Origin: an uncultured Muribaculaceae bacterium
GTDB taxonomy: Bacteria > Bacillota_I > Bacilli_A > RF39 > UBA660
Length of the DNA stretch: 64,000 nt
Direction: 5' to 3'
Assembly: GCA_964630365.1 (NCBI GenBank)
Contig: CAZVUP010000002.1
Location: 10,188 to 74,187 of the forward strand
The notes beneath the pieces are model-generated. The model was given only the letters and a program-made list of their open reading frames with translations, did not search any database and was not told the DNA's origin. The translations under genes and the position numbers were made by a program. This document shows, in pieces, positions 17,429 to 61,562 of this stretch. Numbering within the stretch: the first letter of the stretch is position 1; each line of letters begins with the position of its first letter.

Positions 17429-17433
17429 ACCTC

Positions 17434-21038: not shown

Positions 21039-21048
21039 ATCCTAACTT

Positions 21049-22511: not shown

Positions 22512-23135
22512 TTTAATTTTATCATTTATTTAAAACTAAGTAAATGTATTTTGTTGCTTTTATACTTATTTTTTTATTTTTTTGCGTTTTTTTACAACAT
22601 TATATATAAACAAAAAAGCCAACTTGTCTTGTCAGCTTTTCTGTCAAACATGCATTTATTTATAAATAATGCATCATTCATAAATAAATGTTTACACCTT
22701 TGTAAGCTTTGACATGCTTACACTCACTACTTACTGCTTGAATAATATTTAGTGGCAAAATGAGCTTAATACTCAACAATATCCCATTCCCCATAATCCT
22801 ATCTTAAGTTTTGTAACAATAAATCGTTACATAGCGCTAAAATTACATTTAATGGTTGTTAACTAATCATTTAATACTAAGGGTGTACCACCAAAGGTAA
22901 AATCGCTTTTAACACGACATCACCTCCTAATTTTCGTCATTTTCAAGATAAAATATATACAAGTATACACTTTATCCATCTAACGACAACTAAATTATAT
23001 CATAAATCCCAGTTTTTACCAAGTAAATAAAAGGAAAAAGTCAAATTTTTATGAATAAATTATAATTAAATTCAACATCATACTTTTTCATATATTTACT
23101 AGTAATTCCTATAGTTATAGTAAAGGTATCATTTA

Positions 23136-42611: not shown

Positions 42612-42620
42612 ATTTACCCC

Positions 42621-43156: not shown

Positions 43157-44593
43157 CTAGTTATTAACTCTTTGCCTAATCATCTCTGTTCCCATCGTTA
43201 TCTTTTCAAAAGTATAACCATTATTTTTTCCATAATGAATTATATCTCTAAGTGCATCTCTCGTATATGTCTTAATATCATGCATTAATACCATATTAAC
43301 ACGATCTTTACGCAAACTAGATACAACATTATTATAAATATCTGAACTACTTGGGCTTCCACCAGCAGCATCACCGCTGGATACATTCCAATCATAATAT
43401 TTAAATCCTCTATTAAGTACTTCACCTGTTAAATAACTCATAATCCCAGCTGAATAACGTCTACTAATAGTATTACTACTTCCTCCTGGAAAACGTATTA
43501 TTTTACTTTCATAACCAGTAATTCTTTTAACTCTATCTTGAACACTATACAAATCTGAAAAATATGAATCAGCAGAAGCATAAACAATCGCATAATCATG
43601 ACTAGCGGTATGAAGTGCAACAGTATGTCCTTCATCGTATTCCCTTTTTATTAATTCATCAGGACCTTTATTCGTTACAAAGAAAGTAGCCTTCACTCCT
43701 TCTTCTTTTAAAATATCAAGAATGACATCAGTTGTACCACTATTAGGGCCATCATCAAAAGTTAAATAAATAGTCCCATTTGCCCCTCTTTCACTAACCA
43801 TAACAGTTCTCGTAATACTAGCTTCATTTCCAGCGGCATCTACTGCTTTATAAGTTATTTTGTATTCACCAGCAGTATTCATATCAACATTACCGCTTGC
43901 TTCAACACTTACATTTTCATCGCAATTATCTGTTGCAGTTGCACCTGAATCACTATATGTATCACCACGATAAACATAAACATAATCGGCACCCTCTAGA
44001 ACAATTTTAGGCTGTTCAATATCTTTAAAGAAAATCTTCTTTTCAACTTCCTTCATATTTCCAGAACTATCTTTTACTTTATAAATAATACTATCACTAT
44101 CAATAATAGTTTTAATTCTTTTACTAATATCACCATCATAATTATCAGTTGCTTTTACTTTTTCTGGAACCACTTCATCACCAGGACATAAATAAATATC
44201 ACTATTATCAATATCTAATTTTGGTTTTGTCAAATCCTTAACTAAAACTTTCCTCTTTACTTTTCTAGTAAAAATACCTGTCTTAACTTTATATGTTATA
44301 TCATATTCCCCTAACTTATTAGAATTAACTTTACCAGAGACAGACACATCAGAACTAATATCATCACCAAGAAAACTAGCATTATAGCCTTTCTCTTTAT
44401 ACTTATCTTTATAATTTAAGACAACAACCTTATCACCTTTAAGATTAATTTGCGGTAATAATAAAAAATTAATAATGATAACTACTAACATAATAGTAGC
44501 AACCAAAGAAAACCATACTAAGAATTTTTTGTTTATAAAATGCTTCGTCTCAAACAATCTTTTTATTTTTCTTTTTAACTCAATTTTACTCAT
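43157..44593 (-). CDS. polysaccharide deacetylase family protein with N-terminal TM and Ig-like repeats
   Basis: NodB motif TIYLTFDDGPNSGTTD, plus HTASH and MHD His motifs. Three repeated about 70-aa beta modules precede the catalytic domain. Confidence 0.75.
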   Translation of the reverse strand: MSKIELKRKIKRLFETKHFINKKFLVWFSLVATIMLVVIIINFLLLPQINLKGDKVVVLNYKDKYKEKGYNASFLGDDISSDVSVSGKVNSNKLGEYDITYKVKTGIFTRKVKRKVLVKDLTKPKLDIDNSDIYLCPGDEVVPEKVKATDNYDGDISKRIKTIIDSDSIIYKVKDSSGNMKEVEKKIFFKDIEQPKIVLEGADYVYVYRGDTYSDSGATATDNCDENVSVEASGNVDMNTAGEYKITYKAVDAAGNEASITRTVMVSERGANGTIYLTFDDGPNSGTTDVILDILKEEGVKATFFVTNKGPDELIKREYDEGHTVALHTASHDYAIVYASADSYFSDLYSVQDRVKRITGYESKIIRFPGGSSNTISRRYSAGIMSYLTGEVLNRGFKYYDWNVSSGDAAGGSPSSSDIYNNVVSSLRKDRVNMVLMHDIKTYTRDALRDIIHYGKNNGYTFEKITMGTEMIRQRVNN

Positions 44594-44652: not shown

Positions 44653-45351
44653 TCAAATCCGATTGTTTTTAATAAATTCCCTTAAAAGTTTTGTAAGTGC
44701 CCTTTTCTCTATACGTGAAACATAGCTTCTAGAAATACCCATTTTTTTAGAAATTGTTTTTTGTGTTTCCTCATCTACATTTTCTAAACCATACCTATTT
44801 ATTATTATTTTCTTCTCCCGAGGAGTTAATACATCCATATACTCATATAATAATTTAATATTATCTTTCAATTCAATATCATCACAAAAATCAACTTCTT
44901 CAGTCTTTAAAATATCCATAATAGCAATCTCATTACCATCTTTATCATAACCTACTGTTTCATTGATAGAAATATCTTTACTATACTTATTATTCTTTCT
45001 AAAATACATTAATATTTCATTCTCAATACACCTAGCACAATAGGTAGTAATTTTAACACCTTTATCAGGAGAAAAAGTATCTACGCCTTTTATTAATCCA
45101 ATTGTACCAATACTAATTAAATCATCTACATCAGTTTGTTTAGAATCATATTTTTTAACAATATGAGCTACTAATCTTAAATTATGTTCAATTAATTTAT
45201 TCCTACTCTCTAAGTCACCATTAAGCTTCTTTTTAATACACTCATCTTCCTCTTCCGGAGATAAAGGTTCTAAAAAAACATCATTAGAATAACTACCAGT
45301 AAAACAAAATAAACTTTTTAATAAATAAATTAAAAACATATAATCACCCAT
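44653..45351 (-). CDS. sigK: sporulation pro-sigma factor, SigK/SigE family (SigK-like)
   Basis: Pro-sequence, then FLEPLSPEEE, IEHNLRLVAHIVKKY, DLISIGTIGLIKGVDTF, TYCARCIENEILMYFR and ISRSYVSRIEKRAL. Near-identical to the conserved blocks of Bacillus SigK/SigE. Confidence 0.75.
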   Translation of the reverse strand: MGDYMFLIYLLKSLFCFTGSYSNDVFLEPLSPEEEDECIKKKLNGDLESRNKLIEHNLRLVAHIVKKYDSKQTDVDDLISIGTIGLIKGVDTFSPDKGVKITTYCARCIENEILMYFRKNNKYSKDISINETVGYDKDGNEIAIMDILKTEEVDFCDDIELKDNIKLLYEYMDVLTPREKKIIINRYGLENVDEETQKTISKKMGISRSYVSRIEKRALTKLLREFIKNNRI

Positions 45352-45377: not shown

Positions 45378-46790
45378 TTATTTTAATTTTAATTTTTTCA
45401 TAACTACCTTTAAACTATCATTAATAAATTTTTTATTTAGTAAAAAGGCATAAATACAAACTACTACTAAATTAACAATATTTAATAATAAATTATTATA
45501 GTAATAAAGTCCAATTGAAAATGTAAATATAATCAAAGTCTTCAATATTAAACCATTCTCAATTTTAATATTGATGTACTTTTTCAAATCTATATGTCGA
45601 TATAACATCATTACAAAATAAGCTATAGCTGTTGATATAGCAGCAGCATATAATCCTATTTGTTTAATAAATACAATATTTATAATAATATTTATAACCG
45701 CCCCAATAATAGCCGTTGTGGCTACTTGTTTTGATAATTTCTTAGCTAAGTATACTTGACTATATAAACATATTGCTACATTAAATACTGCTCCCAGTAC
45801 TAAAAAAGGAATATAATTATAAGCATCATTATATTTCGAATCTATTAATAACGGAAAAACAAATGGTAAGCAAGCAATCATTCCAACACCTAAAGCTGTA
45901 AATAACTTAATAACTGTATTTGTAATATCTGAAAAGAATTCATCTCTATCATCACTATTAATATGTAAAGCTGCACTCTCACTCCAACTAAGATTAAATA
46001 CACCAGTCAAACTAGAAATAATAGTTGGAAACTTATTACTAATAGCATATAGTCCATTAAAAGAAGCTCCTAAAACAATTTTTATAATAGTTCGATCACT
46101 AACATTAACAATCCACCAACTTATACCATTAGGTATTAAAGGAAGCGAGTATTTATACATTTCTTTCAATAATTTACTATCAACCAATTTAAAATCTACA
46201 TCTTTATATAATTTAAGTTTTAAAAATAAATATAATGAACAAATAAAATTAGCTAGTGCCATAGAAACAATCATTCCTAGTGCTCCCATATGGAAATAAC
46301 AAATTAATACTATGTTAGAAATAACTGTTGTTAACCCCGTCAAAATACAACTAATAGAGTAATCTAATGTCTTTCCATACCCTCTAGCAATCTGTAAAAA
46401 ATTACCTGATAAAACGCAAACAATAATATCAATTAATATTATCCATCTAAATGGAATTGTTACAAAAGCTGAAAAAATTATATATAATAAACTAAATAAA
46501 CTTAAACTAATAAGTAATACATAGAAATTATTACTAATAAGTTTCTTTGTATTTTTATTATCCCCTCTTGCATCAATTAAATATCTAAAAATACTCATTT
46601 CAAGTTCTAAAGTAATAATTGGAACAAGTAATGTAACATATGTCTGAATCAAATCAACAAGTCCATATTCACTAGTTGCCAAATACGCAGTATATAGAGG
46701 TAATAAGAAAAACGATATTAATTGTGTACAGACTTTTCCAAAAAATATTATAATTGTATTTTTAGCAAGTTGCTTCTTTTTATTCATCAA
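45378..46790 (-). CDS. MOP-superfamily oligosaccharide flippase (Wzx-like polysaccharide biosynthesis protein)
   Basis: 470 aa with 12-14 TM, characteristic length and topology. Confidence 0.65.
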   Translation of the reverse strand: MMNKKKQLAKNTIIIFFGKVCTQLISFFLLPLYTAYLATSEYGLVDLIQTYVTLLVPIITLELEMSIFRYLIDARGDNKNTKKLISNNFYVLLISLSLFSLLYIIFSAFVTIPFRWIILIDIIVCVLSGNFLQIARGYGKTLDYSISCILTGLTTVISNIVLICYFHMGALGMIVSMALANFICSLYLFLKLKLYKDVDFKLVDSKLLKEMYKYSLPLIPNGISWWIVNVSDRTIIKIVLGASFNGLYAISNKFPTIISSLTGVFNLSWSESAALHINSDDRDEFFSDITNTVIKLFTALGVGMIACLPFVFPLLIDSKYNDAYNYIPFLVLGAVFNVAICLYSQVYLAKKLSKQVATTAIIGAVINIIINIVFIKQIGLYAAAISTAIAYFVMMLYRHIDLKKYINIKIENGLILKTLIIFTFSIGLYYYNNLLLNIVNLVVVCIYAFLLNKKFINDSLKVVMKKLKLK

Positions 46791-47241
46791 ATCTCCTCCT
46801 CCAATTATTTAATGTCCAATAACTAAAACTAGCTGCTATTCCACCAATAGTATCAATTACAACATCAAGTATTTCTCCACTTCTCCCATTAACAAACATC
46901 TGATGGACTTCATCACTAATCGCATATACAAAAACAATCAAAATAGTCAAAGCAATACTTCTATAACTAATAATTGTAAATTCTTTGATAAAACTAATAA
47001 TAGCTAAACCTAGTAAAAAATATAAAAACAAATGTGCACTTTTCCTAACTATTTTAACAAATTTTTTTATATATTTTTCCTTCTCATATTCACTAAGTTT
47101 CCTTTCTAATATTACTTCACATGACTTAACTATAATAGAATCACTTTTCTTCGTCGATTGACTACCAGTATCTGCTGATAAAGAAAATATAAATGCCATT
47201 AATAATACTATTATTATAAATTTAACTACTTTTCTAATCAC
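46780..47241 (-). CDS. VanZ family protein
   Basis: 4-TM. C-terminal ISDEVHQMFVNGRSGEILDVVIDTIGG matches the VanZ-like motif. Confidence 0.6.
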   Translation of the reverse strand: MIRKVVKFIIIVLLMAFIFSLSADTGSQSTKKSDSIIVKSCEVILERKLSEYEKEKYIKKFVKIVRKSAHLFLYFLLGLAIISFIKEFTIISYRSIALTILIVFVYAISDEVHQMFVNGRSGEILDVVIDTIGGIAASFSYWTLNNWRRRFDE

Positions 47242-48701
47242 TAATTAGTAACTCCCTCTTTTATTTTTCTAGATGCAACTGCATTATATGCTTCTTCAAT
47301 ATCATTAAAATAAATTGTCTCATCTTTTAATTTTTCATATGTCTCATTACCTTTACCCAGTATTAAAACAATATCCTTTTCTTGAGCCATATTAATTGCT
47401 TTATTAATAGCTTCTCTCCTATCAATAACTATCTCATAATTAGTATGCGTATCTTTTAATTCTTTAATAATATCTTCACAAATTGCCATAGGATCTTCAC
47501 TTCTTGGATCTTCATAAGTAAAAATTGCATATGTTGCATTTTCAACAACTACATTACCAACTTTAGGTCTTTTTAAATTATCCCTCTCACCAGCTTGGCC
47601 TATTACAACTATACTTTTGTTTATATCTAACGTATGAACAAAATTCAATAACTTTTGAATTCCATTAGGTGTATGAGCATAATCAACCATTACATAATAT
47701 GGAGTATCAGTTTTTAAAAGCTCTAATCTACCACTTATCTTAATATCAGCTATTCTTGGTAATATTAAATCAATATTAAAACCTGCTGCTACTGAGCATA
47801 AGATAGCACACGCTAAATTATAAACATTAAAGTCACCCATCAAAGGACTATCGATGTTCAATTCTCTATCACCATATTTAAAAACAATATCTGTATGATT
47901 TGGATAAACCTTGTAATTAACTATTTGCAAATCATTATCAGCAGCTTTTCCATAAGTTAAAACTTTCCCATTACAAGCTGCCTTAACTTGTTCATAATAA
48001 AGATCATCTTTATTAATTATACAAAAACCATCTTTCTTTGTTTGTCTAAATAATTGTAATTTTGAATCTAGATAGTTTTCAAAAGAACCATGGATATTAA
48101 GATGTTCACTAGTTATATTTGTAATAGCCGAAACATCATACTCCATAGCCTGTAAACGTCCTCTGAAAAAAGCCTCACTTGATGCTTCCATCGCCGTATA
48201 TTTACATCCATACTTAACAAATTCATCCAAATATAAATACAAGTTTTGTGCATCAGGAGTAGTATTGGGATTATCACCAGTAAATCCTGCACAACTTCTA
48301 CCATTAGTTCCTATATACCCACAAATATCACTTCCAATAAGTGTTTGAATAATTGTAGTTACACTTGTTTTCCCATCTGTACCAGTAACCCCAATCATTT
48401 TCATTTTATTATCAGGATAATCATAGAACTTTTGACACAAATATGGTAATTCTCTATTAGTATCTGGTACTTTAATAATAGGAACACTCTTATCTTTTAT
48501 ATCTTTACTGACTATTATAGCACTAGCACCATTTTTTATAGCTTCATCAATAAAATCATGACGATCCCTAGTAACACCCATTGTACAGACAAACAAATCG
48601 CCTGCTACCACTTCCTTAGAATTGATTTTAATTCCTTTTATTAATATATCTGTACCAACACCAGGATATAATTCATTTAATTTTTTCATACACTTCACCA
48701 A
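47241..48701 (-). CDS. murE: UDP-N-acetylmuramoyl-tripeptide ligase (MurE-type Mur ligase)
   Basis: GVTGTDGKTS P-loop and DYAHTP Mur-ligase motifs. 486 aa. Confidence 0.8.
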   Translation of the reverse strand: MVKCMKKLNELYPGVGTDILIKGIKINSKEVVAGDLFVCTMGVTRDRHDFIDEAIKNGASAIIVSKDIKDKSVPIIKVPDTNRELPYLCQKFYDYPDNKMKMIGVTGTDGKTSVTTIIQTLIGSDICGYIGTNGRSCAGFTGDNPNTTPDAQNLYLYLDEFVKYGCKYTAMEASSEAFFRGRLQAMEYDVSAITNITSEHLNIHGSFENYLDSKLQLFRQTKKDGFCIINKDDLYYEQVKAACNGKVLTYGKAADNDLQIVNYKVYPNHTDIVFKYGDRELNIDSPLMGDFNVYNLACAILCSVAAGFNIDLILPRIADIKISGRLELLKTDTPYYVMVDYAHTPNGIQKLLNFVHTLDINKSIVVIGQAGERDNLKRPKVGNVVVENATYAIFTYEDPRSEDPMAICEDIIKELKDTHTNYEIVIDRREAINKAINMAQEKDIVLILGKGNETYEKLKDETIYFNDIEEAYNAVASRKIKEGVTN

Positions 48702-49694: not shown

Positions 49695-49725
49695 AAAAAG
49701 CGAACAATACGTTCGCTTTTTATTT
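49695..49725. terminator. bidirectional rho-independent terminator
   Basis: AAAGCGAAC aata CGTTCGCTTTTT between the convergent arginase-family and ftsZ genes. Confidence 0.55.
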
Positions 49726-50846
49726 TAAAAATTTCTATCTCTTAAGAATGATGGAACTTCAATATCACCTGTTGGATCTGAATTATCATCATCTTTATTG
49801 CCAAGAACTTCTGTAGGATAACTATAACTATCTCTTGAAGGACTTCTTCTACTTTGTTGATTATTATGGTTAACATCTTGTTGAGAAGTTTTCTTTTGCT
49901 TATCAAAACCTGTAGCAATAACAGTAACAATTACCTCATCACTTAAATTTTCATTAATAACTGATCCAAAAATAGTATTAATATCATTGCCGGCAGCACT
50001 TCTAACAACTTCTGCAGCTTGTTCCGCTTCAAACAAAGTTAAATTAACTCCACCAGTAATATTAATAATTGCATCTGTTGCTCCTTCAATTGAAGTATCA
50101 AGAAGTGGTGAAGAAACAGCTTGCTTAGCAGCCTCAAGTGCCCTATCTTCGCCCATTCCAATACCAATTCCAATTATCGCACGTCCACTATTTTGCATAA
50201 CAGCCTTAACATCTGCAAAATCCAAGTTAACAAGACCAACAACAGCTATCAAATCAGAAATTGATTGTACCCCACGACGAAGTACATTATCAACTTCTTT
50301 AAACGCTTCAAGCATTGGAGTTGATTTATCGATAATCTCTCTCAACCTATCATTAGGTATTACAATCAATGTATCAACATGTTTTTTTAACTCTTCAATA
50401 CCTTGAATGGCATTTTCCATTCTTTTCTTTCCTTCAAATGAGAACGGTTTAGTAACAATAGCTACTGTCAAAGCACCTAACCCTTGAGCTATTTCAGCAA
50501 CTATTGCTGCTGCTCCAGTACCAGTTCCTCCACCCATTCCTGCAGTAATAAAAACCATATCTGCACCAGCAAGGGCATCTTCTATTTCTTTTTTTGATTC
50601 TATTGCTGACTCTTTACCAACTTCTGGTTTACCACCAGCACCAAGTCCATCTGTAAGTGTTGCTCCTATTTGAATTTTAACATCTGCTTTAGATGTATTT
50701 AAAACTTGCAAATCAGTATTTGCAGCAATAAATTCAACACCTTTTACGCCAGATTCAACCATTCTATTAATAGCGTTCCCTCCGCCACCACCCATACCGA
50801 TGACTTTAATCTTCGCTAATTGATCCATCTCTAATCCGCCGATCAT
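49725..50846 (-). CDS. ftsZ: cell division GTPase FtsZ
   Basis: GGGTGTG tubulin signature. [18 protein letters not shown]-terminus. Confidence 0.95.
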
Positions 50847-50858: not shown

Positions 50859-52085
50859 TTAATTATCGAGAAAGTGTTCAAACACCTTATTTAACCTATT
50901 ATCATCGATAGTTGTTTTCTTCATAGCCTTTTCTTCTTCTTTAGTAAACATATTATATTGCTTACCACGAAGAGATAATTTGTCATCAAAATATTTGATA
51001 ACGCCATAACAACTACTAAATTTATTGTGCCTAATTCCCATAGCCGATATATTGCATACCTTAGCAACAAAACCAAATTCCTGTTCAACTAAGTTTTGAA
51101 AACCGGCAAGTTCACTTAAGCCACCTGTTATAATTATATAACGTATTTCTCTATTTGTTAAGTTTTTTATTTCATTTTTTGCAAGTTTTAATATTTCTCT
51201 TATTCTAGCCTCCACGACTTTTGAAACACCAACTTGGTTTAGCTCCTTAGAATTATCATTATCAACATTAAAAGTCCATAAATCATTCTGATCAGCATAA
51301 GAAGAAAGTGCAACTGCAAAGCATTCTTTTATTTTTCTAGACTCACTTATTTTTGATTTAAAAACATAAGTCAAATCTTTATCGACATTCTTACTTCCAA
51401 CAGGTAATGTACTATTTTTAATTTGAATGCCCTTATTAAAAACCGCAACATTAGTAGATAATTCACCTATATTAATAATAGCCCCAACCAATTCATCATA
51501 CTTACGATTTTTGATTGTATAATAATCGCCTACAGAAGTATAAGCAATATCAACGGTTTCCAAACCACTTAGTTTTAAAACCTCCAATATTCTATATAAA
51601 GGTTCTTTAGGGGTAGTACTAATAACAACTCTAGTCTCTAATACACTACCCTTCATTCCTTTAGGATCTTTAATATTCTTTTCATCATCTATAGTAAAAC
51701 TAATAGGCATTGCTGTTACAAGTTCATTATTTGTAAAATCTTCTCCTTTAAGAGCATTTATCAAAACATTACTAACATCAACTCCAGTTATTTCATTATA
51801 ATCAACAATATCTGTTTTCCCAACAACAATATTCATATCACACAGTTCTGGAGGTACACATGCTATAACTTTAGTAACTTTAACACCCAATAAATCATCT
51901 AACTCTCTAATAGCTCTTTTCACACTACTAGCAGCTAGTTTAGTATCTTCAATAAAACCATTTTTTATTCCTTCAGAAGGACTACAAGTAGAAGCTAACA
52001 CATAAAACTTATCATTAACTTTTTCAGATACAATAATTTTTATACTATCTGTTCCTAAATCAATACCAGTATATATCTCACGCAT
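50859..52085 (-). CDS. ftsA: cell division protein FtsA
   Basis: Actin-fold ATPase blocks (GIDLGTDSIK, IITGGLSELAG). Immediately upstream of ftsZ. Confidence 0.9.
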   Translation of the reverse strand: MREIYTGIDLGTDSIKIIVSEKVNDKFYVLASTCSPSEGIKNGFIEDTKLAASSVKRAIRELDDLLGVKVTKVIACVPPELCDMNIVVGKTDIVDYNEITGVDVSNVLINALKGEDFTNNELVTAMPISFTIDDEKNIKDPKGMKGSVLETRVVISTTPKEPLYRILEVLKLSGLETVDIAYTSVGDYYTIKNRKYDELVGAIINIGELSTNVAVFNKGIQIKNSTLPVGSKNVDKDLTYVFKSKISESRKIKECFAVALSSYADQNDLWTFNVDNDNSKELNQVGVSKVVEARIREILKLAKNEIKNLTNREIRYIIITGGLSELAGFQNLVEQEFGFVAKVCNISAMGIRHNKFSSCYGVIKYFDDKLSLRGKQYNMFTKEEEKAMKKTTIDDNRLNKVFEHFLDN

Positions 52086-52155
52086 ATAATCCTCCTATTC
52101 TTAAAAAACATTATACTACAAATAAAATATTTTGCCTAGATTTATCTTGAAATTA

Positions 52156-53484
52156 TTAGTTCAAAACATACAAATCATAATCCAATAATGTATCTATCTT
52201 TTTACCATTTTTAATTATATATTCAAAACCTTCTTTATCTAATTGCGTTTCTTTATTAGCAATACGCTTATAACAATCTTTTTTTATAAGAAATATCTTA
52301 TCATTATTTTTTTCTATTAACTTTATTATTTTTTTACTACCATTATAACCATGATTACCATGATTAACCAAATCTAAATATCCAATTTTTTGATTAGAAA
52401 TAATTCGATAAAAATAAGCATCATCATTATATATAATTGAAGCATTATCTTTTATGAAAGAAGCAATTTCATTAGAATACATAACATTTTTCCTTGAAAT
52501 ATTTTTATATTCGAAATGTTTTAAATTATTCTTTTGATACTCCAAAACATTCATAGTTTTACCAAATGTAAATATAATTGCAATTAAACATGTATAAAAA
52601 ATAAGTTCATACCTTAGTCTTATATCACCAACTATATTAATAAAAAGTATAGTAAAAGAAAATATAACATAAAACAAATGTAAATTATCAAATAATGGAA
52701 CAAATAACAAATAAGAGAAAATCAAATAATAATTAGAAATATCTTTCTTATTTTTAGCAATCATTATTATGCTAACAATTACTAATATTAAAAACAAAAA
52801 TACAGCTAATCCAAAACCATTGCTATTATTAGTAAAATCGAACATTCCGAATAAACACAAATCCAAAAAATCATATAAAGTTCCAGTTAATAACAAATAA
52901 ATTAAGAATATTATATTAGGAATTATAAATCCTATAATACGCTTAACTAAAGAAATATTACTTTTTTTGATAAACAAAATACTAGGAATTATAAAAAATA
53001 TTCCCACACTATGTTTAGTTAAAATACAACATGCGACCAAAAAACCAATTAAATAATCTTTGTATTTTATATTGCTCTTTTCAAAATAAATAATTAATAT
53101 CATCAAAAATAAAAAGAAAAAATTATATGTTGGATATATTAAAGGGAAAAACATTAATGAAATAATAATTAAAAAATATATTTTTTTATCAAACATTTTA
53201 TATAATAAATAAAACTCTAATGTCACTATTAAAGCATGAAATATAATAAATGATAAATAACTATTCGAAATTAATAATGGTATTGTCATTATAAAACTAT
53301 ATAAAGGGGGAATAACCATATTAAAATCTTTATATGGAATTTCCCCTAATCTAATTGCATAACTAAACCCATAATTCCATATTTCATCAAGATTATTAAT
53401 TACAAACAATAAGTTAAAAATTATTATAAATAAGAAAAAAAGAAAAAAAAGCAAAAATTTACCATATTTTTTCAAAATTATCAC
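52156..53484 (-). CDS. polytopic membrane protein, paralog 5 of 5 (GT-C-like glycosyltransferase candidate with novel C-terminal domain)
   Basis: NLDEIWNYGFSYAIRLGEIPYKDFNMVIPPLY N-terminal loop. LTKHSVG motif. C-terminal HFEY...GNHGYNGSKK. Confidence 0.55.
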   Translation of the reverse strand: MIILKKYGKFLLFFLFFLFIIIFNLLFVINNLDEIWNYGFSYAIRLGEIPYKDFNMVIPPLYSFIMTIPLLISNSYLSFIIFHALIVTLEFYLLYKMFDKKIYFLIIISLMFFPLIYPTYNFFFLFLMILIIYFEKSNIKYKDYLIGFLVACCILTKHSVGIFFIIPSILFIKKSNISLVKRIIGFIIPNIIFLIYLLLTGTLYDFLDLCLFGMFDFTNNSNGFGLAVFLFLILVIVSIIMIAKNKKDISNYYLIFSYLLFVPLFDNLHLFYVIFSFTILFINIVGDIRLRYELIFYTCLIAIIFTFGKTMNVLEYQKNNLKHFEYKNISRKNVMYSNEIASFIKDNASIIYNDDAYFYRIISNQKIGYLDLVNHGNHGYNGSKKIIKLIEKNNDKIFLIKKDCYKRIANKETQLDKEGFEYIIKNGKKIDTLLDYDLYVLN

Positions 53485-54812
53485 TCCTTATAATAAACAG
53501 AAAAGCCCCCTATACTATCTACTTTTAAAAAGTTGTTCTTTATATAATTATAAGCTTCATGATTAAATTGATCACCTGGATTAAGACGTTTTTCATTATT
53601 AGTTATAACAAAATAACAATCTTTTTCATTTTTAATCATATCAACAAACTTCTTACTGCCATTATAACCAAAATTACCATATAGTGGAACATCATAATAA
53701 GTAATTTCCCGATCATAAACTATATCATAATACATATTTAAACCATCAATCATATAATATTTTTCATACTTAGATAATTTTTTATGGACTTCATTAATAG
53801 ATTTTTCAAAAACACTATCCATTAATAAGTATTCATAATGATTTGCTTTTGATAATACCAATTTATCATATATACTATAATAATATACAAAACTTGTCGC
53901 CATAAAAATGAATAACCAAAAATAAATAAATCCATATGTTGGTAGCTTAGAATTATTATTACAAAGAAAAACAAATATTAGTATCATCAAATAAAAAGAA
54001 ATATGTGATTTATCAAATAATGGTAAAACAAACATAAAAGAACCAAGTAAATAATAAATTAATATATTATTTTTTTGTTTTATCAATATATAACTAGTAT
54101 AAATAAGAATAATTAATGAAACTAAGAAATAGATTGAAATTTTTGAATTCTTAGAAGCAAACTCAAACAAACCAGCAATACTCAAGTCAAAAAATGCAAA
54201 TAAACTCTTAGATAAAACTAAATACGCAAAAAACAATAATAATGGAATAAACATATAAAGAATTCTATAAACAACTTTCTTCAATTCTACTTTTTTTATC
54301 AATAGACCAACAAGTACAATAAAAACAATTGGCAAACCAATAGTATGCTTTGAAAGAATTAACAATCCCCAAAAAAAGCCAATCAATTTATCAGAATATT
54401 CTAACTTTTCAATACATAACAACAAAATTACAATTGAAAATGCCAAATAATTATAAGTTGGTATTAAAGCATAGAAAAACGCACCACATAAAGTACAAAT
54501 ATAAATAATAGATTTATTTTTAATTATCTTATCAACAAAGTAGAAAACAACTATATTCAATATAAATGATTCTATTAAAAATACTATAAATGAATCTTTT
54601 ATAAACAATCCTAAAGAAAACAAGAAAATAAACAATGGTGTAGAAATTATATTAAAATCAACATATGGTGTTTCACCTATCACAAATGCATGACAAAAAC
54701 CATATTCCCACGTAGCATCATATTCATAAAAAATAACATTTAAAATAAACAATCTAACAAATAATATAAATCCAAAAATAATAATCCTATAATTTTTCCT
54801 AATAAAGTTCAT
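53481..54812 (-). CDS. polytopic membrane protein, paralog 4 of 5
   Basis: YDATWEYGFCHAFVIGETPYVDFNIISTPLF, LSKHTIG, HYEY...GNFGYNGSKK. Confidence 0.55.
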   Translation of the reverse strand: MNFIRKNYRIIIFGFILFVRLFILNVIFYEYDATWEYGFCHAFVIGETPYVDFNIISTPLFIFLFSLGLFIKDSFIVFLIESFILNIVVFYFVDKIIKNKSIIYICTLCGAFFYALIPTYNYLAFSIVILLLCIEKLEYSDKLIGFFWGLLILSKHTIGLPIVFIVLVGLLIKKVELKKVVYRILYMFIPLLLFFAYLVLSKSLFAFFDLSIAGLFEFASKNSKISIYFLVSLIILIYTSYILIKQKNNILIYYLLGSFMFVLPLFDKSHISFYLMILIFVFLCNNNSKLPTYGFIYFWLFIFMATSFVYYYSIYDKLVLSKANHYEYLLMDSVFEKSINEVHKKLSKYEKYYMIDGLNMYYDIVYDREITYYDVPLYGNFGYNGSKKFVDMIKNEKDCYFVITNNEKRLNPGDQFNHEAYNYIKNNFLKVDSIGGFSVYYKE

Positions 54813-54824
54813 AAAATTATCCCC

Positions 54825-56150
54825 CTATTCCAATATATAAAAATCATAAATTTGAACTGTATCAATCTTAGTTCCTTTTTCAATAATATATTTAACAGCC
54901 TTTTTATCAGCTTGACATTTTTCATTTAAATCATCAGGAGAAATGACAAAGACAGCATTCTTATCATTTCTCTCATTTATCATTTTAATAATCTTATCAC
55001 TACCATTATAACCGAAATTACCACTATTTATTAAATCTAAATATGACATTTTATCATCCAACACAATTCTAAAATAGTAAGCATCAGATGCAACAAAAAT
55101 ATATTCCTTATCATTATTTTTATTAATATAATTAACAATATTATTAGTAAATTTAATAGAATCAGCCCTAATATACCGATATTCAAAATGATTAATACTA
55201 TTAGGGTAATCAATCTTAAATCCTTGGTTATTACTAACAAACATAATAATACCAATACCAACAATTAAAATAAATATTGCTGGTTTTAACTTTGAAATAT
55301 ATTCAATATTAATAATTGATAAAATTTGCATAAACAATAACAAATATGCTAAGCAATTATGATGAAAATCAAACAAAGGCAACATCATCGAAGCAAAAGC
55401 AAAATAATAATAATTACTAATATCATGTTTTCTTTTCCTTACTATCAAAAATCCAACTAATAAATATAATAGAAAATAAAAATACCCAAAATTAAAACCA
55501 GTTGTGTTTTCATGACCAAAGTCAAATAAACCAAGTATACATAAATCAACGAACTGTGGCAATGCATCAAAACAAACTAAAAATAATAAAAATATTATGC
55601 ATGGAACAAAACATCCAATTATTCTCTTAAAAACTTTTTTTCTATCTTTAACAATATAATAAATACTAGGTAAAAGAATAAAAAAACCTATAGTATGTTT
55701 AGTCAAAATACATAATCCTATAATAAATCCTATAATATAATCATTATAATTTATTTTCTCGAGATATATTAACAAAACAACCAAAAAGACAATAAACAAA
55801 TTATAACTTGGAAATGTTATAGAATTTGAACAGAAAACAATAATCAATCCCAATATATATACTTTATCTCCAATTAGTTTATATACAATATAAAAGAAAA
55901 AAGTTAGAATAATAGCGTTTTCAACGTGCAAAACCAACATACTACTACCAAATATATGAAATGGTAACGACATTAAAAACGGATAAAGTGGTGGTATAAC
56001 CATATTAAAATCTCTATATGGAATTAATCCAAGATAAATATTGTGAGCAAAACCATAATTCCATATTTCATCATTCTGAATACTATTAATAACTAAATTC
56101 CATACCAGACATACAACAAATAAAACAAAAAGTTTAAATATTTTTTTCAT
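54825..56150 (-). CDS. polytopic membrane protein, paralog 3 of 5
   Basis: QNDEIWNYGFAHNIYLGLIPYRDFNMVIPPLY, LTKHTIG, HFEY...GNFGYNGSDK. Confidence 0.55.
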   Translation of the reverse strand: MKKIFKLFVLFVVCLVWNLVINSIQNDEIWNYGFAHNIYLGLIPYRDFNMVIPPLYPFLMSLPFHIFGSSMLVLHVENAIILTFFFYIVYKLIGDKVYILGLIIVFCSNSITFPSYNLFIVFLVVLLIYLEKINYNDYIIGFIIGLCILTKHTIGFFILLPSIYYIVKDRKKVFKRIIGCFVPCIIFLLFLVCFDALPQFVDLCILGLFDFGHENTTGFNFGYFYFLLYLLVGFLIVRKRKHDISNYYYFAFASMMLPLFDFHHNCLAYLLLFMQILSIINIEYISKLKPAIFILIVGIGIIMFVSNNQGFKIDYPNSINHFEYRYIRADSIKFTNNIVNYINKNNDKEYIFVASDAYYFRIVLDDKMSYLDLINSGNFGYNGSDKIIKMINERNDKNAVFVISPDDLNEKCQADKKAVKYIIEKGTKIDTVQIYDFYILE

Positions 56151-56204
56151 ATTTCACCACCAAAAAACACTATTAAGATAAAATATTAATAATATTAGTT
56201 AACA

Positions 56205-57587
56205 TTACTTTTTATAATAGATATCAAAACTACCTTCAGATCCAATTTTATTACAATTCTCAATAACATAATTAACTATATTTTTATCAAATTGAGAATA
56301 GGAATCATTTTTCTCATAATCTTTTCTATCAACTAAAATATACCTATCATGCATATTTCCAATTTTATTAATCATTTTTTCGTCACCATTATATCCGAAA
56401 TTACCATAAAGCAACACACCAAAGTAATCAAGTTTCTTATCCCTAGAAATATCATATTGTATTTTAGAATAACTTAAAACTAAAGGATTAGCATATGAAT
56501 CAATAATATTATAATCATTAATAATTCTAGTATAGTTTGAATCAACATTATAAAAAAATTCAAAATGTTTTATTCCTTTATTCAATACAAAATTATAATC
56601 CTTAGCCATGAAGAAAAATACACACAAAAAAATTACAAAAGAAACAATAAAACTTAATATTCCTAAATAGTCACCATATTTTTTTATAAAAGGAACTAAT
56701 TGTAGCAACACACAAACCATATACAATGAAAAATGTGGTGGATCAAATATAGGAATTACAAAAGCTATACCAAATAGTAAATAAAGGTTAGCTATATCAT
56801 CACGATTTCTAATAGTTATAAATAGACTAATAAAAAATAAGGCAACACTTACAAAGAAAAGCGTTGTAAATAAATGATTATTATTACTACCAAAATCAAA
56901 TAATCCTAAAAAACATAAATCTATAAATGGCCATAAACTTTTTGTTAATAATAAATATAAAAAGAATATACTTAAAGGAATAAAAGCACCAAGTACTCTT
57001 CTACCAATCTTCTTTTTATCTTTAAAATAATAAATTAGTGTTGGAATAGCAAAAAAGCACCCAACAGTATGCTTACTAAGAATAGCTAAACCTATAACAA
57101 TACCAATCAAAATATCTTTTTCTTTATAATTCTTTTCAAGAAAAATGAGAAGTATTAAGAAAAAAAGAACCAAAAAATTATAAGTAGCATTAAGAGCATA
57201 TCCAGAAAATAAGGATATAAAAAACATAATTATAAAAGACTTTTTACCAAATGTTCTCTCCAAAATATAAAAAAACAAGGTAACAAGTAATGCTTGTTCA
57301 ATCAACAACATTGTAAAATTATTCCAGAATAACAAGCCTATAGCCATTAAAAAAGCATATAATGGCGTAGAAATAATATTAAAATCAAGATATGGTATTT
57401 CCCCCTTTGTAATAGCATAACTAAAGCCATACATAGCAATCGGATCACCATAAGCACTTGGAAAATTAAAAATATAATATAAAGAAAAAACAAATATAAA
57501 TATCAAAATATAATACCAATTTTTCTTAAATAAAGTTACCATACTACTCTCCCAATACATAAATATTGTAATTACCAAAACTATCAA
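56205..57587 (-). CDS. polytopic membrane protein, paralog 2 of 5
   Basis: GDPIAMYGFSYAITKGEIPYLDFNIISTPLY, LSKHTVG, HFEF...GNFGYNGDEK. Confidence 0.55.
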   Translation of the reverse strand: MIVLVITIFMYWESSMVTLFKKNWYYILIFIFVFSLYYIFNFPSAYGDPIAMYGFSYAITKGEIPYLDFNIISTPLYAFLMAIGLLFWNNFTMLLIEQALLVTLFFYILERTFGKKSFIIMFFISLFSGYALNATYNFLVLFFLILLIFLEKNYKEKDILIGIVIGLAILSKHTVGCFFAIPTLIYYFKDKKKIGRRVLGAFIPLSIFFLYLLLTKSLWPFIDLCFLGLFDFGSNNNHLFTTLFFVSVALFFISLFITIRNRDDIANLYLLFGIAFVIPIFDPPHFSLYMVCVLLQLVPFIKKYGDYLGILSFIVSFVIFLCVFFFMAKDYNFVLNKGIKHFEFFYNVDSNYTRIINDYNIIDSYANPLVLSYSKIQYDISRDKKLDYFGVLLYGNFGYNGDEKMINKIGNMHDRYILVDRKDYEKNDSYSQFDKNIVNYVIENCNKIGSEGSFDIYYKK

Positions 57588-58857
57588 TTATCTTCCCATT
57601 ATCGATAATATAATGAATTAACTCCTGATCCGTTTGTTTACCTCTTCCTATTTCATTTTTATTAAGAAAAAAAGCATAATCAGAGTCCAACTTCTTAACA
57701 CTCTCTAGCAACTTACTACTACCATTATAGCCCCAATTACCAGTATTTATCAAATCCAAATTATTAAGTGGATAATTACCAATAAGTTTATAATAATATG
57801 CATTAGGCCCAACAAAAATAACTTTATGATTATATTTCTCATAATAATTAAGAACTTTGTGAGCTGATTTTACTTTTTCTTGAGTAATAAACCGATACTT
57901 AAAAGCACCTAAATCATTAGGATATACTCTATAATTAAAACCACTATTAATAAAATATATTATCAAAAAAGCTAAAAACAAAGATAAACCAATAGTCTTA
58001 TACTTAACTACTTTAAAATCAAAATTAATAAAAACAATTATCAAAAAAGCAACCAAATATATATTAAAATGATATAAATCAAAGATTGGAAAACAAATAC
58101 TAGAAAATAATAATAAATAATAGTAATAAATATTTCGTCTATTTTTAATTATCAAATAAATAGTAAATAGTATTATCATTATGACAAAAAAGAAAAAGAT
58201 ATTAAATGGTGTTCCATTTCCTTTGCCAAAATCAAATAAACCAAGAAAACATAAATCAAAAAATTCTTTATAACTATTTGAAATAATTAAATATATCATA
58301 AAAATAATATTAGGTATTATAAAAGCCACTATTCTTTTAAAAAGCTTATCTTTACTAGAAAAATAAAAAAATATAGAAAAGAATAAAACTAATCCAACAC
58401 TCTGTTTAGTTAAAAATATCAAAGCTAATATTAAACCTATTAAATAATCATTAGCTTTTATTTTTTCTAAGTAAAGAATAAAAACAAATAACAGTAACAA
58501 TAAAAAATTATAATTAGGAAAAGTTATATTTAAAGGAAAAATAAGTAGTGGTAACACTATATAAGCTTTCTTATTCAATAACTTAAAAACAAAAAATATA
58601 AAAATTAGTATCATTAAACTATTTATTATATGAAAAACTAAAAAACTATCATTAAAAAAATGAATAAAAAATCCCATAATCATAGGATAAAAAGGCGTTA
58701 TTACCATATTAAAATCAACATAAGGAATAAGACCTGAAGAAATATTTTTAGTAAAACCATAACTCCATACTTCATCCAAATTCATTGGACTAATAAGCAA
58801 ATTAAACCCTAAAAAAATTATAAATATTAACATATAAGACAATATTTTTTTATTCAT
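57544..58857 (-). CDS. polytopic membrane protein, paralog 1 of 5
   Basis: NLDEVWSYGFTKNISSGLIPYVDFNMVITPFY, LTKQSVG, AFKY...GNWGYNGSSK. Confidence 0.55.
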   Translation of the reverse strand: MNKKILSYMLIFIIFLGFNLLISPMNLDEVWSYGFTKNISSGLIPYVDFNMVITPFYPMIMGFFIHFFNDSFLVFHIINSLMILIFIFFVFKLLNKKAYIVLPLLIFPLNITFPNYNFLLLLLFVFILYLEKIKANDYLIGLILALIFLTKQSVGLVLFFSIFFYFSSKDKLFKRIVAFIIPNIIFMIYLIISNSYKEFFDLCFLGLFDFGKGNGTPFNIFFFFVIMIILFTIYLIIKNRRNIYYYYLLLFSSICFPIFDLYHFNIYLVAFLIIVFINFDFKVVKYKTIGLSLFLAFLIIYFINSGFNYRVYPNDLGAFKYRFITQEKVKSAHKVLNYYEKYNHKVIFVGPNAYYYKLIGNYPLNNLDLINTGNWGYNGSSKLLESVKKLDSDYAFFLNKNEIGRGKQTDQELIHYIIDNGKIIDSFGNYNIYVLGE

Positions 58858-58862: not shown

Positions 58863-59561
58863 TCACTCCATAATCTTAAAATGATTGCCACTATCTAAAT
58901 AAAGAATACCTTTATGGCCTTCAAGTTGCTTCAAAACCTCATTATAATGATTAATAGCCTTAAACTTTGTCAAAGTAAGATAAACCATATTACCATCATC
59001 CATATATAATAAAAATCTATCTTTATCATAATCATTTGGTTGATACTCAATATCACTAATTTTAGATATTACATCATCATTAACATTTTCCATAGATTCA
59101 ATAAACTTTTTATATTTTTTATCAGGCACATAATTTAATAGCCTTGGCACACTAAAATTATGACTTATTTCATCATCAGCAACTTCACCATTAATAAAAA
59201 CATATTTATTTATATTATTATCAAAAAATAAAGGTTTAGCTTCTCCAATTTCAACTTTTAAAACAAATGGATATTTTTTTGTAACTTTTGCATTATCAAT
59301 ATATTTAGATTTTTCTAATTTTGATTCTAACCTATTAGTATTTATAAGAAAAAACTTTGGATAATTTTTAATACCAACTAAATTAATAATATAATCATCA
59401 TTTAAATACTTAGTACCACTAATTATAATATTCTGAGTTTTTATATTAACAATAAAATACACGCCAAAAAATAGTCCTATAAAAACTAAAAGAACTATTA
59501 AAAAATTAAATACTTTTAATTTCCTTTTCTTAACTATTTTTTTAGCCATATCTACTCCCAA
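58863..59561 (-). CDS. divIB: cell division protein DivIB/FtsQ
   Basis: Bitopic protein (basic N-terminus, one TM) with a POTRA-like region. Position between murB and ftsA. Confidence 0.6.
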   Translation of the reverse strand: MGVDMAKKIVKKRKLKVFNFLIVLLVFIGLFFGVYFIVNIKTQNIIISGTKYLNDDYIINLVGIKNYPKFFLINTNRLESKLEKSKYIDNAKVTKKYPFVLKVEIGEAKPLFFDNNINKYVFINGEVADDEISHNFSVPRLLNYVPDKKYKKFIESMENVNDDVISKISDIEYQPNDYDKDRFLLYMDDGNMVYLTLTKFKAINHYNEVLKQLEGHKGILYLDSGNHFKIME

Positions 59562-60463
59562 TTTACAAATTCTTGTTCAATTTTCAAATCTATTCCATAT
59601 TTCTCTAAAACTGTATCATGAGCTAAATCAATAAGATATTTAATTTCACTACTAGTAGCATTATTATAATTAACAATAAAATTAGCATGCTTGTCGCTAA
59701 TCATTGCTCCCCCATACTTTTTACCCTTAAGTCCGGAATCTTCTATTAATTTTCCGGCGAAATTACCTTCAGGATTTCTAAAAACACTACCAGCTGACGG
59801 AAATTCTAATGGTTGCGTTTCCAATCTTCTCTTTCGCCTTTCATTAATAACTTCTTCGATTATTTCCTTTTTTCCTTTATTAAGTTTTAATAATACTTCT
59901 AAACAAATATATCCCTTATTTTTTTGTAGAAAAGAGCTACGATAATGAAAGTTCATTTCTTTGTTTTCTAAATCAATTATCTTAAGATCAGGAGTTAATA
60001 CTTTAACTTTTTGAACTATATAACCCATATCAGATTTATAAGCTCCAGCATTCATATATACTGCTCCACCAACAGTTCCAGGAATACCAGAAGCAAATTC
60101 AAGCCCTGCAAGCCCCTTTTTTGCAGCCATAAGACTAAGCTTTATTAAGGAAACACCAGCACCAACACGAATTTTATTTCTAGCTAAAAATTTGATATCA
60201 TTAAATTCTGAAAGTCTAATTAAAACTCCATTATAATCTTGATCACTAAAAAGCAAATTAGAACCATTACCAAGTATTTTAAACATTATTTTATTTTCCC
60301 GTAATAATCCTATTAACTTAACTAATTTTCTACTATTAGTAGGATACACTACACATCTAGCATTTCCTCCAGACTTATATGTAGTATATTTTTTTAATGG
60401 AACATTTTCTTCAATTCTTCCAATATCCTCAATTTTAATAAATTCTAAAATATCTTTCATCAA
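59552..60463 (-). CDS. murB: UDP-N-acetylenolpyruvoylglucosamine reductase
   Basis: FAD-binding PCMH N-domain and the C-terminal block GGAMISDKHANFIVN. 303 aa. Confidence 0.9.
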   Translation of the reverse strand: MMKDILEFIKIEDIGRIEENVPLKKYTTYKSGGNARCVVYPTNSRKLVKLIGLLRENKIMFKILGNGSNLLFSDQDYNGVLIRLSEFNDIKFLARNKIRVGAGVSLIKLSLMAAKKGLAGLEFASGIPGTVGGAVYMNAGAYKSDMGYIVQKVKVLTPDLKIIDLENKEMNFHYRSSFLQKNKGYICLEVLLKLNKGKKEIIEEVINERRKRRLETQPLEFPSAGSVFRNPEGNFAGKLIEDSGLKGKKYGGAMISDKHANFIVNYNNATSSEIKYLIDLAHDTVLEKYGIDLKIEQEFVNWE

Positions 60464-60464: not shown

Positions 60465-61562
60465 TCACCTAATTATCTTTTTAGCTTCTTCATAAATTCT
60501 TGTAGCTGAATCAGTAATTCCAAGTTTTCGACAATTATTAACCATTGAATCGTATCTATCTTTATCATCAAACAACTTATCAATTTCACTTATTATTGTA
60601 TCTTTTGAAAAATCATCTTCACTAATAATGATACAAGCTCCTCTTTCTTCCAACTCTTTAGCATTTTTATATTGATGATTATTTGTAACATATGGAGAAG
60701 GCACAAGAATTGCTGGCAAACCAATAGCTGTAATTTCAGCAATTGTTGACGCACCTGCTCTTGATACTATTAAATCGCTATCCTTCAATAAATTAATTAA
60801 ATCATCCATAAAAGGAACAATTTTTACATTATCAGTTTTTTCTATATCTTTATAATCTTCAAAATACTTATTACCAGTTATAACCAGAACTTGATAGTTT
60901 TTATTTTTAAACCCTGGAATTAACTCCTTAATTTTTAAAGTCATTGTAGTACTACCAAGAGACCCCATAACCACAACCACAAGCTTCTTATCTTCATCAA
61001 ATCCTAACGTAGATTTTTTTCTTTTAGAAACACTAATTATTTCTTCACTACGAGGATTCCCGGTATAAACAACTTTCTTTCGTGGAAAAAGATCTAAACT
61101 ATTTGGTAAAGAAACACATATTTTATCCGCAAAATTACCAATAAATTTATTAGATAATCCTGGAATTGAATTCTGTTCATGAATAAGTGTAGGAACTTTT
61201 TCTAAATGCGCTGCATACAAAACCGGAGCCGTAATATAACCACCTGCTCCAATCACAATATCAGGTTTAAATTTTTTTATCTCTTCTCTTGCCTTTTTTA
61301 TAGCCAAGCGGAATTTTTTCAAAACAACAATATTAGCAAATACATTTTTTCGATTTAAACCAATCATCTCTAAACCAACGAATTTAATACCTAGTTTTGG
61401 AACAATATCCTTCTCCATCCTATCACTTGTTCCAATATATAGAATTTCACTATTCTTTTCCTGTTCTTTAATTTTATTAATTATTGCCAAGGCAGGATAA
61501 ATATGTCCTCCTGTTCCACCAGCCACCACAATTGCTCGCATTACAATCACTCCATCTAACAA
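60465..61562 (-). CDS. murG: undecaprenyldiphospho-muramoylpentapeptide beta-N-acetylglucosaminyltransferase
   Basis: AGGTGGHIYPALAI N-terminus and GT28 C-domain. 365 aa. Confidence 0.9.
   Translation of the reverse strand: MLDGVIVMRAIVVAGGTGGHIYPALAIINKIKEQEKNSEILYIGTSDRMEKDIVPKLGIKFVGLEMIGLNRKNVFANIVVLKKFRLAIKKAREEIKKFKPDIVIGAGGYITAPVLYAAHLEKVPTLIHEQNSIPGLSNKFIGNFADKICVSLPNSLDLFPRKKVVYTGNPRSEEIISVSKRKKSTLGFDEDKKLVVVVMGSLGSTTMTLKIKELIPGFKNKNYQVLVITGNKYFEDYKDIEKTDNVKIVPFMDDLINLLKDSDLIVSRAGASTIAEITAIGLPAILVPSPYVTNNHQYKNAKELEERGACIIISEDDFSKDTIISEIDKLFDDKDRYDSMVNNCRKLGITDSATRIYEEAKKIIR

Follow-up and report, generated by a model that had tools for sequence, protein, structure and literature searches.

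The 64 kb window analyzed in the current study (the whole 64,000 nt stretch, taken from contig CAZVUP010000002.1 of an uncultured bacterium of the RF39 lineage) carries five consecutive genes on its minus strand, between the division genes divIB and ftsA (nt 52156–58857). The predicted fold of their products strongly supports the view that they form one uncurated family of integral membrane proteins with the GT-C(A) glycosyltransferase fold, similar to that of solved GT-C enzymes. The interpretation favored here, to which a probability of about 0.65 is given, is that these five are extracytoplasmic enzymes that use polyprenyl-phosphate sugars as donors, modify a glycopolymer of the cell envelope, and are co-expressed with the divisome. 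Paralogy, fold, pattern of conservation and synteny were computed, and from these we infer the donor type, topology, co-transcription and acceptor.

Numbered in the order of transcription, the paralogs are P5 (437 aa, nt 57544–58857), which lies next to divIB; P4 (445 aa, nt 56205–57542); P3 (441 aa, nt 54825–56150), the copy used for structural modeling; P2 (443 aa, nt 53481–54812), the most divergent copy; and P1 (442 aa, or 439 aa by external gene calls, nt 52156–53484), which lies next to ftsA. The initial annotation gave lengths of 437–460 aa, and these hold for the mechanically derived open reading frames (ORFs), but the longest of them (nt 56205–57587, 460 aa) most likely encodes the 445 aa form of P4 starting at Met16 (nt 57542), as its first 15 residues remain unaligned in the alignment of paralogs and external gene callers also give 445 aa. 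An assembly artefact was rejected because the array is present identically in three independent metagenome assemblies.

P3 was modeled with high confidence by AlphaFold2 from an alignment of 33 sequences (pLDDT 90.9, pTM 0.91). When this model was compared to the PDB using Foldseek, all of the top 23 matches were to GT-C-fold proteins, beginning with ArnT (E 6.7e-6, TM-score 0.58) and continuing with AglB, ALG9, STT3, AftA, ALG12, ALG3, Emb, Pmt and PimE; AftB and PIG-M were likewise among the structural matches. With the exception of AglB, the closest folds are mostly enzymes with glycan or lipid acceptors. GT-C enzymes are defined by a polytopic membrane core of 7–13 transmembrane (TM) helices (PMC11127046), and the P3 model shows about 11 of these ahead of residue 308, in agreement with hydropathy and charge analysis and with the earlier estimate of 10–12. 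The GT-C-like character initially proposed from sequence is thus borne out by the model. The opposing possibility, an unrelated transporter family, received no Pfam or NCBIfam match and only noise-level structural matches (E > 0.5, probability ≤ 0.12), and was excluded, a GT-C assignment being strongly supported. The family is also a candidate for a new GT-C family in CAZy.

The sole recurrent Pfam signals of the array family were to PMT_2 (PF13231; GT39-like) and GT87 (PF09594; PimE-type polyprenyl-phosphate-mannose mannosyltransferases), neither of which has a counterpart of the C-terminal domain and GNxGY motif described below. In P3 both were sub-threshold (22.7 vs 26.1 bits for PMT_2, 22.2 vs 25.0 bits for GT87), and P1, P2, P4 and P5 matched neither. 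Among 109 diverse members of the family, 19 matched PMT_2 (best E 2e-5) and 16 matched GT87 (best E 2.5e-7) at E < 0.01, the matches covering the TM2–TM7 core (residues ~53–200), and most members had no match to either. A single member gave a marginal match to EpsG (E 1.1e-3), no further Pfam family was matched, and the YfhO model in Pfam matched none of the 109 at E < 0.01. The ArnT models in NCBIfam matched none of the five paralogs. Some members of the family are named 'glycosyltransferase family 39 protein' by NCBI.

In the P3 model, TM1 (residues 3–21) is followed by a loop with two short helices (residues 22–70, nt 55941–56087) that contains the putative catalytic residue Asp27 and a GxIPYxDFN motif. 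The N-terminus is basic (KK) and the loops at residues 161–176 and 238–243 are strongly positive (6 and 4 K/R, respectively); those at 22–70 and 196–218 are acidic or neutral. This charge bias indicates an N-in, C-out orientation that would place loop 1 and the C-terminal domain outside the membrane, as in ArnT and the oligosaccharyltransferases (OST). A small extracytoplasmic domain after TM1 with a conserved acidic residue is a feature of GT-C enzymes, and is seen here with Asp27. The C-terminal soluble domain reported initially is present as an alpha/beta domain carrying an invariant GNxGYxG loop, and is nearer 130 aa (P3 residues 309–441, nt 54828–55226) than the 120 aa first estimated.

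Conservation was assessed across 214 copies of the family from 79 genomes (P3 numbering), for which mean column identity among diverse members is about 30%. Y116, G141, K151 and F211 are invariant (214/214); P258, H264, G377, N378 and G380 (the last three forming GNxG) are each found in 213 copies, and R176 in 212. D27 is Asp in 210 copies and Glu in three, N49 is kept in 205 and D47 in 200. The loop-1 motif of the initial annotation is essentially right, except that the glutamate of its 'DE' is missing from P2 (D-A) and P4 (D-P), and in the family as a whole the residue after the loop-1 Asp is Glu in just 89 of 214 copies. Similarly, the conserved LTK(H/Q) segment, in which the lysine is present in every copy, is more exactly L(T/S)K(H/Q). 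Thirty-seven positions are at least 90% conserved, and by predicted location these comprise 20 of 90 outer-loop positions, seven in the C-terminal domain, nine of 185 TM positions and one of 33 cytoplasmic positions. Such clustering toward the predicted exterior is characteristic of an active site outside the cytoplasm. All five window paralogs retain the near-invariant residues (P5 keeps every one of the family invariants), which makes activity probable for each of them.

By analogy with solved GT-C enzymes (the mechanisms of ArnT, PglB and Pmt, and the definition in PMC11127046), the following scheme may be proposed. A GtrB-type GT2 enzyme would synthesize a polyprenyl-phosphate sugar in the cytoplasm, and this sugar would be flipped outward and bound at the outer leaflet, where K151, R176 and H264 are candidate phosphate ligands. 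Asp27, near the N-terminal end of loop 1, may then serve as the catalytic acid/base, either activating the acceptor or stabilizing the transition state, and the sugar would pass to an acceptor in the envelope, kept in place by the outer loops and the C-terminal GNxGY loop. The paralogs belong to old subfamilies that most likely differ in acceptor position, linkage or sugar and that would jointly extend or decorate a glycopolymer of the lipoteichoic acid or lipoglycan type, anchored in the membrane or the wall. Through co-transcription with the division genes, this modification could be supplied while new envelope is being formed at the septum.

The five proteins are clearly paralogous. All ten pairs align over nearly their full length with 30–42% identity (BLASTP E 3.6e-38 to 6.1e-103; P5 against the other four, 4e-38 to 1e-87), and DNA similarity is only patchy, at 65–70%. 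End-to-end protein similarity of this level together with patchy DNA similarity points to old duplications without recent gene conversion, as had been supposed at the outset, and the recurrence of the same subfamilies across species agrees with this. Just nine subfamily-specific positions were found, too few for locating determinants of specificity.

The array lies in a block of co-directional genes, ordered murG-murB-divIB-[P5–P1]-ftsA-ftsZ on the minus strand, and its placement as five consecutive, co-directional ORFs between ftsA and divIB was confirmed by domain matches of the neighboring genes. The block begins with murG (nt 60465–61562; Glyco_transf_28 and Glyco_tran_28_C on the external gene call), followed by murB (nt 59552–60463; FAD_binding_4 and MurB_C on an identical external gene call), which overlaps divIB/ftsQ (nt 58863–59561; POTRA_1 E 8.5e-14, FtsQ_DivIB_C E 2.2e-4) by 10 bp. 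The stop of divIB is 5 bp from P5, and P4, if started at Met16, begins directly after the stop of P5. P4 and P3 are separated by 54 bp and P3 and P2 by 12 bp; P2 overlaps the start of P1 by 4 bp, indicating tight coupling of these two genes. A spacer of 70 bp (nt 52086–52155) with an AGGAGG ribosome-binding site separates P1 from ftsA (nt 50859–52085; FtsA E 1.3e-17, SHS2_FTSA E 9e-12), after which comes ftsZ (nt 49725–50846), identified by the tubulin signature GGGTGTG in its translation and by orthologous external gene calls with Tubulin and FtsZ_C.

It had been assumed that the array splits a normally contiguous divIB-ftsA-ftsZ unit, which is wrong for Bacilli: in B. subtilis the divIB-ftsA slot holds ylxW-ylxX-sbp, co-transcribed with murB-divIB and ftsA-ftsZ (PMC6827917). 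The novelty is in the contents of the slot and not in its occupancy. The B. subtilis genes share the operon position of the array and also encode membrane proteins, but are unrelated, and no paralog matches the DUF881-type family. YlxW and YlxX are small single-pass proteins.

In a family-based scan of one genome per species (GTDB), 78 loci were recovered, nearly all of them labeled as uncultured gut Bacilli, Tenericutes, Mollicutes or 'Mycoplasma sp. CAG:877', and the array family was seen solely in uncultured, very AT-rich gut Bacilli (metagenome-assembled genomes of the 'Tenericutes' or 'Mycoplasma sp. CAG' type), which probably belong to the GTDB order RF39. By tblastn, the one-strand order murG-murB-divIB-[family]-ftsA-ftsZ was found in nearly all 78. 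Both divIB and ftsA are in view in 67 arrays (66 of the 78 loci and the window itself), and the slot between them holds one copy in seven arrays, two in 23, three in 22, four in six and five in nine. Clustering of the 214 copies revealed subfamilies that recur in a fixed order (e.g. 27-38-14, 13-44 and 22-47-27-14-45), which indicates that the duplications predate much of the diversification of the lineage and that the copies are not interchangeable. The window copies are no more than about 50% identical to any copy in the species representatives. A recent insertion of the array, lacking a conserved link to the division and cell wall (dcw) genes, was an alternative raised initially; it was rejected because the slot and the order of subfamilies are conserved among related loci. 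Frameshifted or truncated remnants of family genes lie inside the arrays of other species (designated here by locus number; L028:7101-8246, L067:6386-6922, L005:9801-9926 and L013:7971-8204), a sign of birth and death within arrays and of ongoing gene loss.

Four relatives (L086–L089) were sampled independently of the family, by FtsA homologues of 71–87% identity, and three of these carry the family, with three to at least four copies upstream of ftsA. In L087 and L088 the copies lie directly between divIB and ftsA; in L086, the locus ends before divIB is reached and there are intervening genes. An exhaustive hidden Markov model search of 1.84 billion cluster representatives (50%-identity level) recovered 587 clusters at E < 1e-30 and 1777 at E < 1e-3.

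The packing of the array is operon-like, with gaps of –4 to 70 bp and no intergenic terminator-like site, and on this basis the array is probably co-transcribed with the division genes from shared promoters. The sole minus-strand terminator-like site between 49.6 and 61.8 kb falls inside P4, in a scan that performed no better than on shuffled sequence. A function coupled to division or sporulation, as first proposed, is suggested by gene order.

The divIB-ftsA slot is a hot spot for envelope enzymes in related genomes. A second uncurated, GT-C-like family of polytopic proteins (~470 aa), with the loop-1 sequence 'DYFWHIKAGE' after TM1, was counted at 11 loci, and members were recorded in L010 (1437-2849), L012, L027, L036, L038, L042, L043, L066, L067, L076, L002, L087 (7522-8934) and L018 (8490-9938). 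These genes adjoin copies of the array family or sit directly upstream of ftsA; the second family has no Pfam match and is absent from the window. An hhalign comparison with the array family gave E 7.5e-6 across the first 150 residues, a stretch that includes the Asp loop, so that this is probably another GT-C family, weakly related to that of the array. The slot of L013 and L044 contains a true PMT_2 protein (500 aa, E 6.7e-11), and hhalign of the array family against these two sequences was not significant (probability 2.5%). The slot of L086 has a GT_STM0557_N protein. Also present in the divIB-ftsA interval beside GT-C-like genes, in L086 (7407-8942) and L089 (5901-7433), is a ~510 aa FAD/NAD-binding oxidoreductase of the NCBIfam PRK07208 group (E 3e-220), distantly related to phytoene desaturase and UDP-galactopyranose mutase.

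In three loci the slot harbors a CDP-alcohol phosphatidyltransferase (PssA/PgsA-like) together with an LtaS-like protein with a sulfatase domain (L088:6498-8918, L049:12698-15213 and L068:7598-9989). LtaS functions in the synthesis of lipoteichoic acid (LTA). Two of these loci, L088 (11492-14298) and L049 (17737-20533), have directly after ftsZ a gene for a 321 aa GtrB-like GT2 protein, followed by one for a 614 aa polytopic protein. The GT2 matches Synechocystis GtrB (sll0501) in the PDB at E 1.2e-62 and ArnC at about 1e-34, and reaches 1.1e-75 against PgfS of NCBIfam, below the equivalog cutoff. Together, the genes make up an LTA-like synthesis and glycosylation module around ftsA-ftsZ in those relatives. 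GtrB-type enzymes produce polyprenyl-phosphate sugars that are consumed by GT-C enzymes (PMC11127046), and the presence of GtrB-like and LtaS-like genes in this context favors glycosylation or elongation of a membrane-anchored glycopolymer.

Several observations weigh against an array of donor-dependent envelope glycosyltransferases tied to division. None of the five paralogs exceeds the threshold of any Pfam or NCBIfam model, and sequence profile searches of the PDB (with 5 and with 143 sequences) returned no GT-C match, just a chance match to colicin or nothing. The topology is a prediction derived from the model and the charge bias. No GtrB-like GT2 or GtrA-like flippase was seen in the 64 kb window or in the 10 kb past either end; tblastn with the L088 GT2 found it in L088 and L049 only, and the Pfam GtrA model matched none of the scanned window ORFs, a scan in which ORFs below 100 aa were not systematically included. 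The 78 loci were retrieved using the family itself and so give no measure of its universality, and in five of them the family copies have no dcw genes in view. L089 lacks the family, having instead a distant relative of the second GT-C-like family along with the FAD oxidoreductase. As regards co-transcription, the scan of 49.6–61.8 kb gave 100 promoter-like sites (98.9 expected) and two terminator-like sites (2.2 expected). The one promoter-like match in the P1-ftsA spacer (TAGGCA-17-TATAAT, nt 52138–52110) is only a candidate, such matches being no commoner than in shuffled sequence, but it means that ftsAZ may also be transcribed independently. In B. subtilis, ftsAZ has its own promoters.

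A more specific version of the favored interpretation can be put forward tentatively: the one to five GT-C enzymes may form a division-coupled assembly line that builds or decorates a lineage-specific lipoglycan or secondary wall polymer at the septum, in place of the canonical teichoic acids. Each conserved subfamily would then add one defined sugar or linkage, with expression tied to murG-murB-divIB-ftsA-ftsZ. RF39 bacteria are predicted to have a peptidoglycan wall and to lack the standard pathways for wall teichoic acid and LTA (PMC10868615).

It is possible, if somewhat unlikely, that the paralogs instead O-glycosylate proteins, in the manner of PMT or of streptococcal PgfM/PgtC, their targets being extracytoplasmic parts of divisome proteins, penicillin-binding proteins (PBPs) or secreted proteins, with a different set of proteins for each paralog. 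The array adjoins divIB, and streptococcal GT-C enzymes modify the Ser/Thr-rich tails of FtsQ, PBP1a, PknB and PrsA (PMC12041528). PMT_2 is the best Pfam signal of the family, and NCBI gives some members family 39 names, but the signal stays below threshold and is equalled by GT87, a family with lipid or glycan acceptors. Multiple PMT paralogs occur in yeast, which may be counted in favor of such a role, but the array proteins have no MIR-type domain, and a scan of the window found no Ser/Thr-rich tails in its DivIB or in either of its PBPs.

Modification of peptidoglycan or lipid II, for example by a sugar substituent on septal peptidoglycan, would explain the mur/fts setting, in which the array genes of nearly all loci are flanked by murG-murB-divIB on one side and ftsA-ftsZ on the other; moreover, the RF39 lineage retains its peptidoglycan genes while many wall-associated functions have been lost (PMC10868615). 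Nevertheless this is improbable. No structural resemblance was seen between the array proteins and SEDS or other enzymes of lipid II (there was no RodA, FtsW, WaaL or Wzy structure among the top Foldseek matches of P3), a variable number of copies, from one to five, would be unusual for a core step, and some copies lie away from dcw genes. There is also no gap in synthesis to be filled: with FtsW/RodA/SpoVE (E 2e-113), MraY, MurG, MurB, a Mur ligase and class B PBPs all present, it is unlikely that the array replaces peptidoglycan synthesis, and a replacement of SEDS/PBP function in particular was rejected.

Polymerases or ligases of the Wzy, WaaL or EpsG type, acting on undecaprenyl-diphosphate-linked oligosaccharides, would also be polytopic with conserved outer loops, and one family member has the marginal EpsG match given above; this identity is very improbable, as the strong fold matches all belong to the ArnT, ALG, PIG-M, OST, Pmt and PimE group and no Wzx-dependent polysaccharide locus (initiating transferase, cytoplasmic glycosyltransferases) lies near the array. 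That the proteins are non-enzymes, either transporters or structural membrane components of the divisome sharing a helical bundle, is hardly credible given the noise-level matches to transporters and a near-invariant Asp and set of polar outer-face residues across 214 copies of about 30% overall identity, as would be expected for an active site.

Among known systems, ArnT (GT83) shares its fold with the P3 model but not its sequence (8–11% identity, no match at the sequence level). ArnT has 13 TM helices; the array proteins are about 100 residues shorter, with about 11, and occur in a Gram-positive setting without lipid A. The three-component systems (GtrA/GtrB/Gtr*, CsbB-YfhO, GtlA-GtlB and Lactococcus Csd) operate by what may be a shared logic, in which a GT-C enzyme uses a polyprenyl-phosphate sugar outside the membrane (PMC11127046). 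The likeness is greatest in the relatives, two of which have a GtrB-like GT2 in the dcw-linked cluster and three an LtaS-like gene in the slot. The window differs in that neither GtrB nor GtrA was seen in it and in its up to five tandem GT-C genes in place of one; the array is inside a division operon instead of a prophage or polysaccharide locus, and has no match to the YfhO model. EmbC-EmbA-EmbB and Aft of mycobacteria, and ALG3/ALG9/ALG12 of eukaryotes, are likewise sets of several divergent GT-C paralogs encoded together. ALG12, ALG3, ALG9, AftA, AftB and Emb are among the structural matches of the array, in which the order of subfamilies is conserved; the Emb/Aft enzymes are much larger and have carbohydrate-binding modules that the array proteins lack. 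Stepwise action of the paralogs on one glycan, as these sets might suggest, is only an analogy. The array represents a new, multi-paralog GT-C family in an unusual but conserved setting, and not a new type of system.

Elsewhere in the window, the dcw genes are spread over several scattered minus-strand blocks and do not form one cluster. One block holds mraZ (nt 39620–40090), mraW (nt 38691–39623) and an intact PBP gene with PASTA (nt 36216–38363), and another holds mraY (nt 12463–13443) and FtsW/RodA/SpoVE (nt 11323–12441; E 2.3e-113). Downstream of ftsZ are genes for a MurE-like ligase (nt 47241–48701), with VanZ in the same block, a MurJ/SpoVB-like flippase (nt 45378–46790) and a sigma-70 family factor (nt 44653–45351), all likewise on the minus strand. 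Between ftsZ and the MurE-like/sigma-factor block lies an oppositely oriented arginase gene, and relatives have kept the region that runs from ftsZ as far as the sigma factor. Three minus-strand ORFs beside ftsW and mraY that matched no family (nt 8965–9930, 321 aa; nt 9952–11244, 430 aa; nt 13523–15094, 523 aa) were rejected as further GT-C genes, being soluble or coiled-coil proteins; the third is a highly charged coiled-coil that has a hydrophobic segment at its C-terminus.

A class B PBP gene (SpoVD/PBP2B-like; nt 15133–24392, minus strand) is split by an insert of about 7.3 kb. The N-terminal part (nt 23136–24392) contains PBP_dimer and Transpeptidase positions 2–167 and ends in GQGVSVTPI/HLTV followed by a stop; the C-terminal part (nt 15133–15783), with Transpeptidase positions 170–298 and PASTA, resumes at 'TPLQQVMAVSAVVNGG'. 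The two align to residues 15–432 and 429–637 of the intact PBP. The insert carries a large serine recombinase at one end (nt 15761–17428), an ABC transporter (nt 19248–21038) and an AbiEii/AbiEi pair (nt 21049–22511), and resembles either an intervening element of the skin type or a mobile element that has disrupted a cell-wall/sporulation PBP. Two adjacent minus-strand genes (nt 41721–43148) specify proteins with Tim44-like domains, the larger of which (nt 41721–42611) has near its N-terminus an unusual Ser/Gly/Trp-rich repeat, 'SDYSSGSSWGSSSSWGGSSSSDWDFSSGSS', the sole low-complexity segment rich in Ser/Thr among the real ORFs of the window. Proteins with polysaccharide deacetylase domains are encoded at nt 6594–8222 (plus strand) and nt 43157–44593 (minus strand), one of them with Ig-like surface domains, and together with a LysM protein (nt 1846–3648) they represent further envelope-modifying functions near dcw genes.

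GT-C enzymes make or decorate most of the major surface glycoconjugates, including lipopolysaccharide modifications, teichoic acid sugars, mycobacterial arabinan and mannosylated proteins. The family described here, compact at about 440 aa and with no curated model, is nearly always within the core division operon where it is found, and its hosts are abundant uncultured gut Bacilli whose envelope is essentially uncharacterized. If the array does act on a septum-linked glycopolymer, it would show how a Gram-positive lineage with a reduced genome replaces teichoic acids, and would be a rare example of envelope glycosylation that is bound genetically to ftsA and ftsZ. The variable number of copies, from one to five, together with the conserved subfamilies, suggests a diversity of surface glycans that may be relevant to interactions with the host and with phages.

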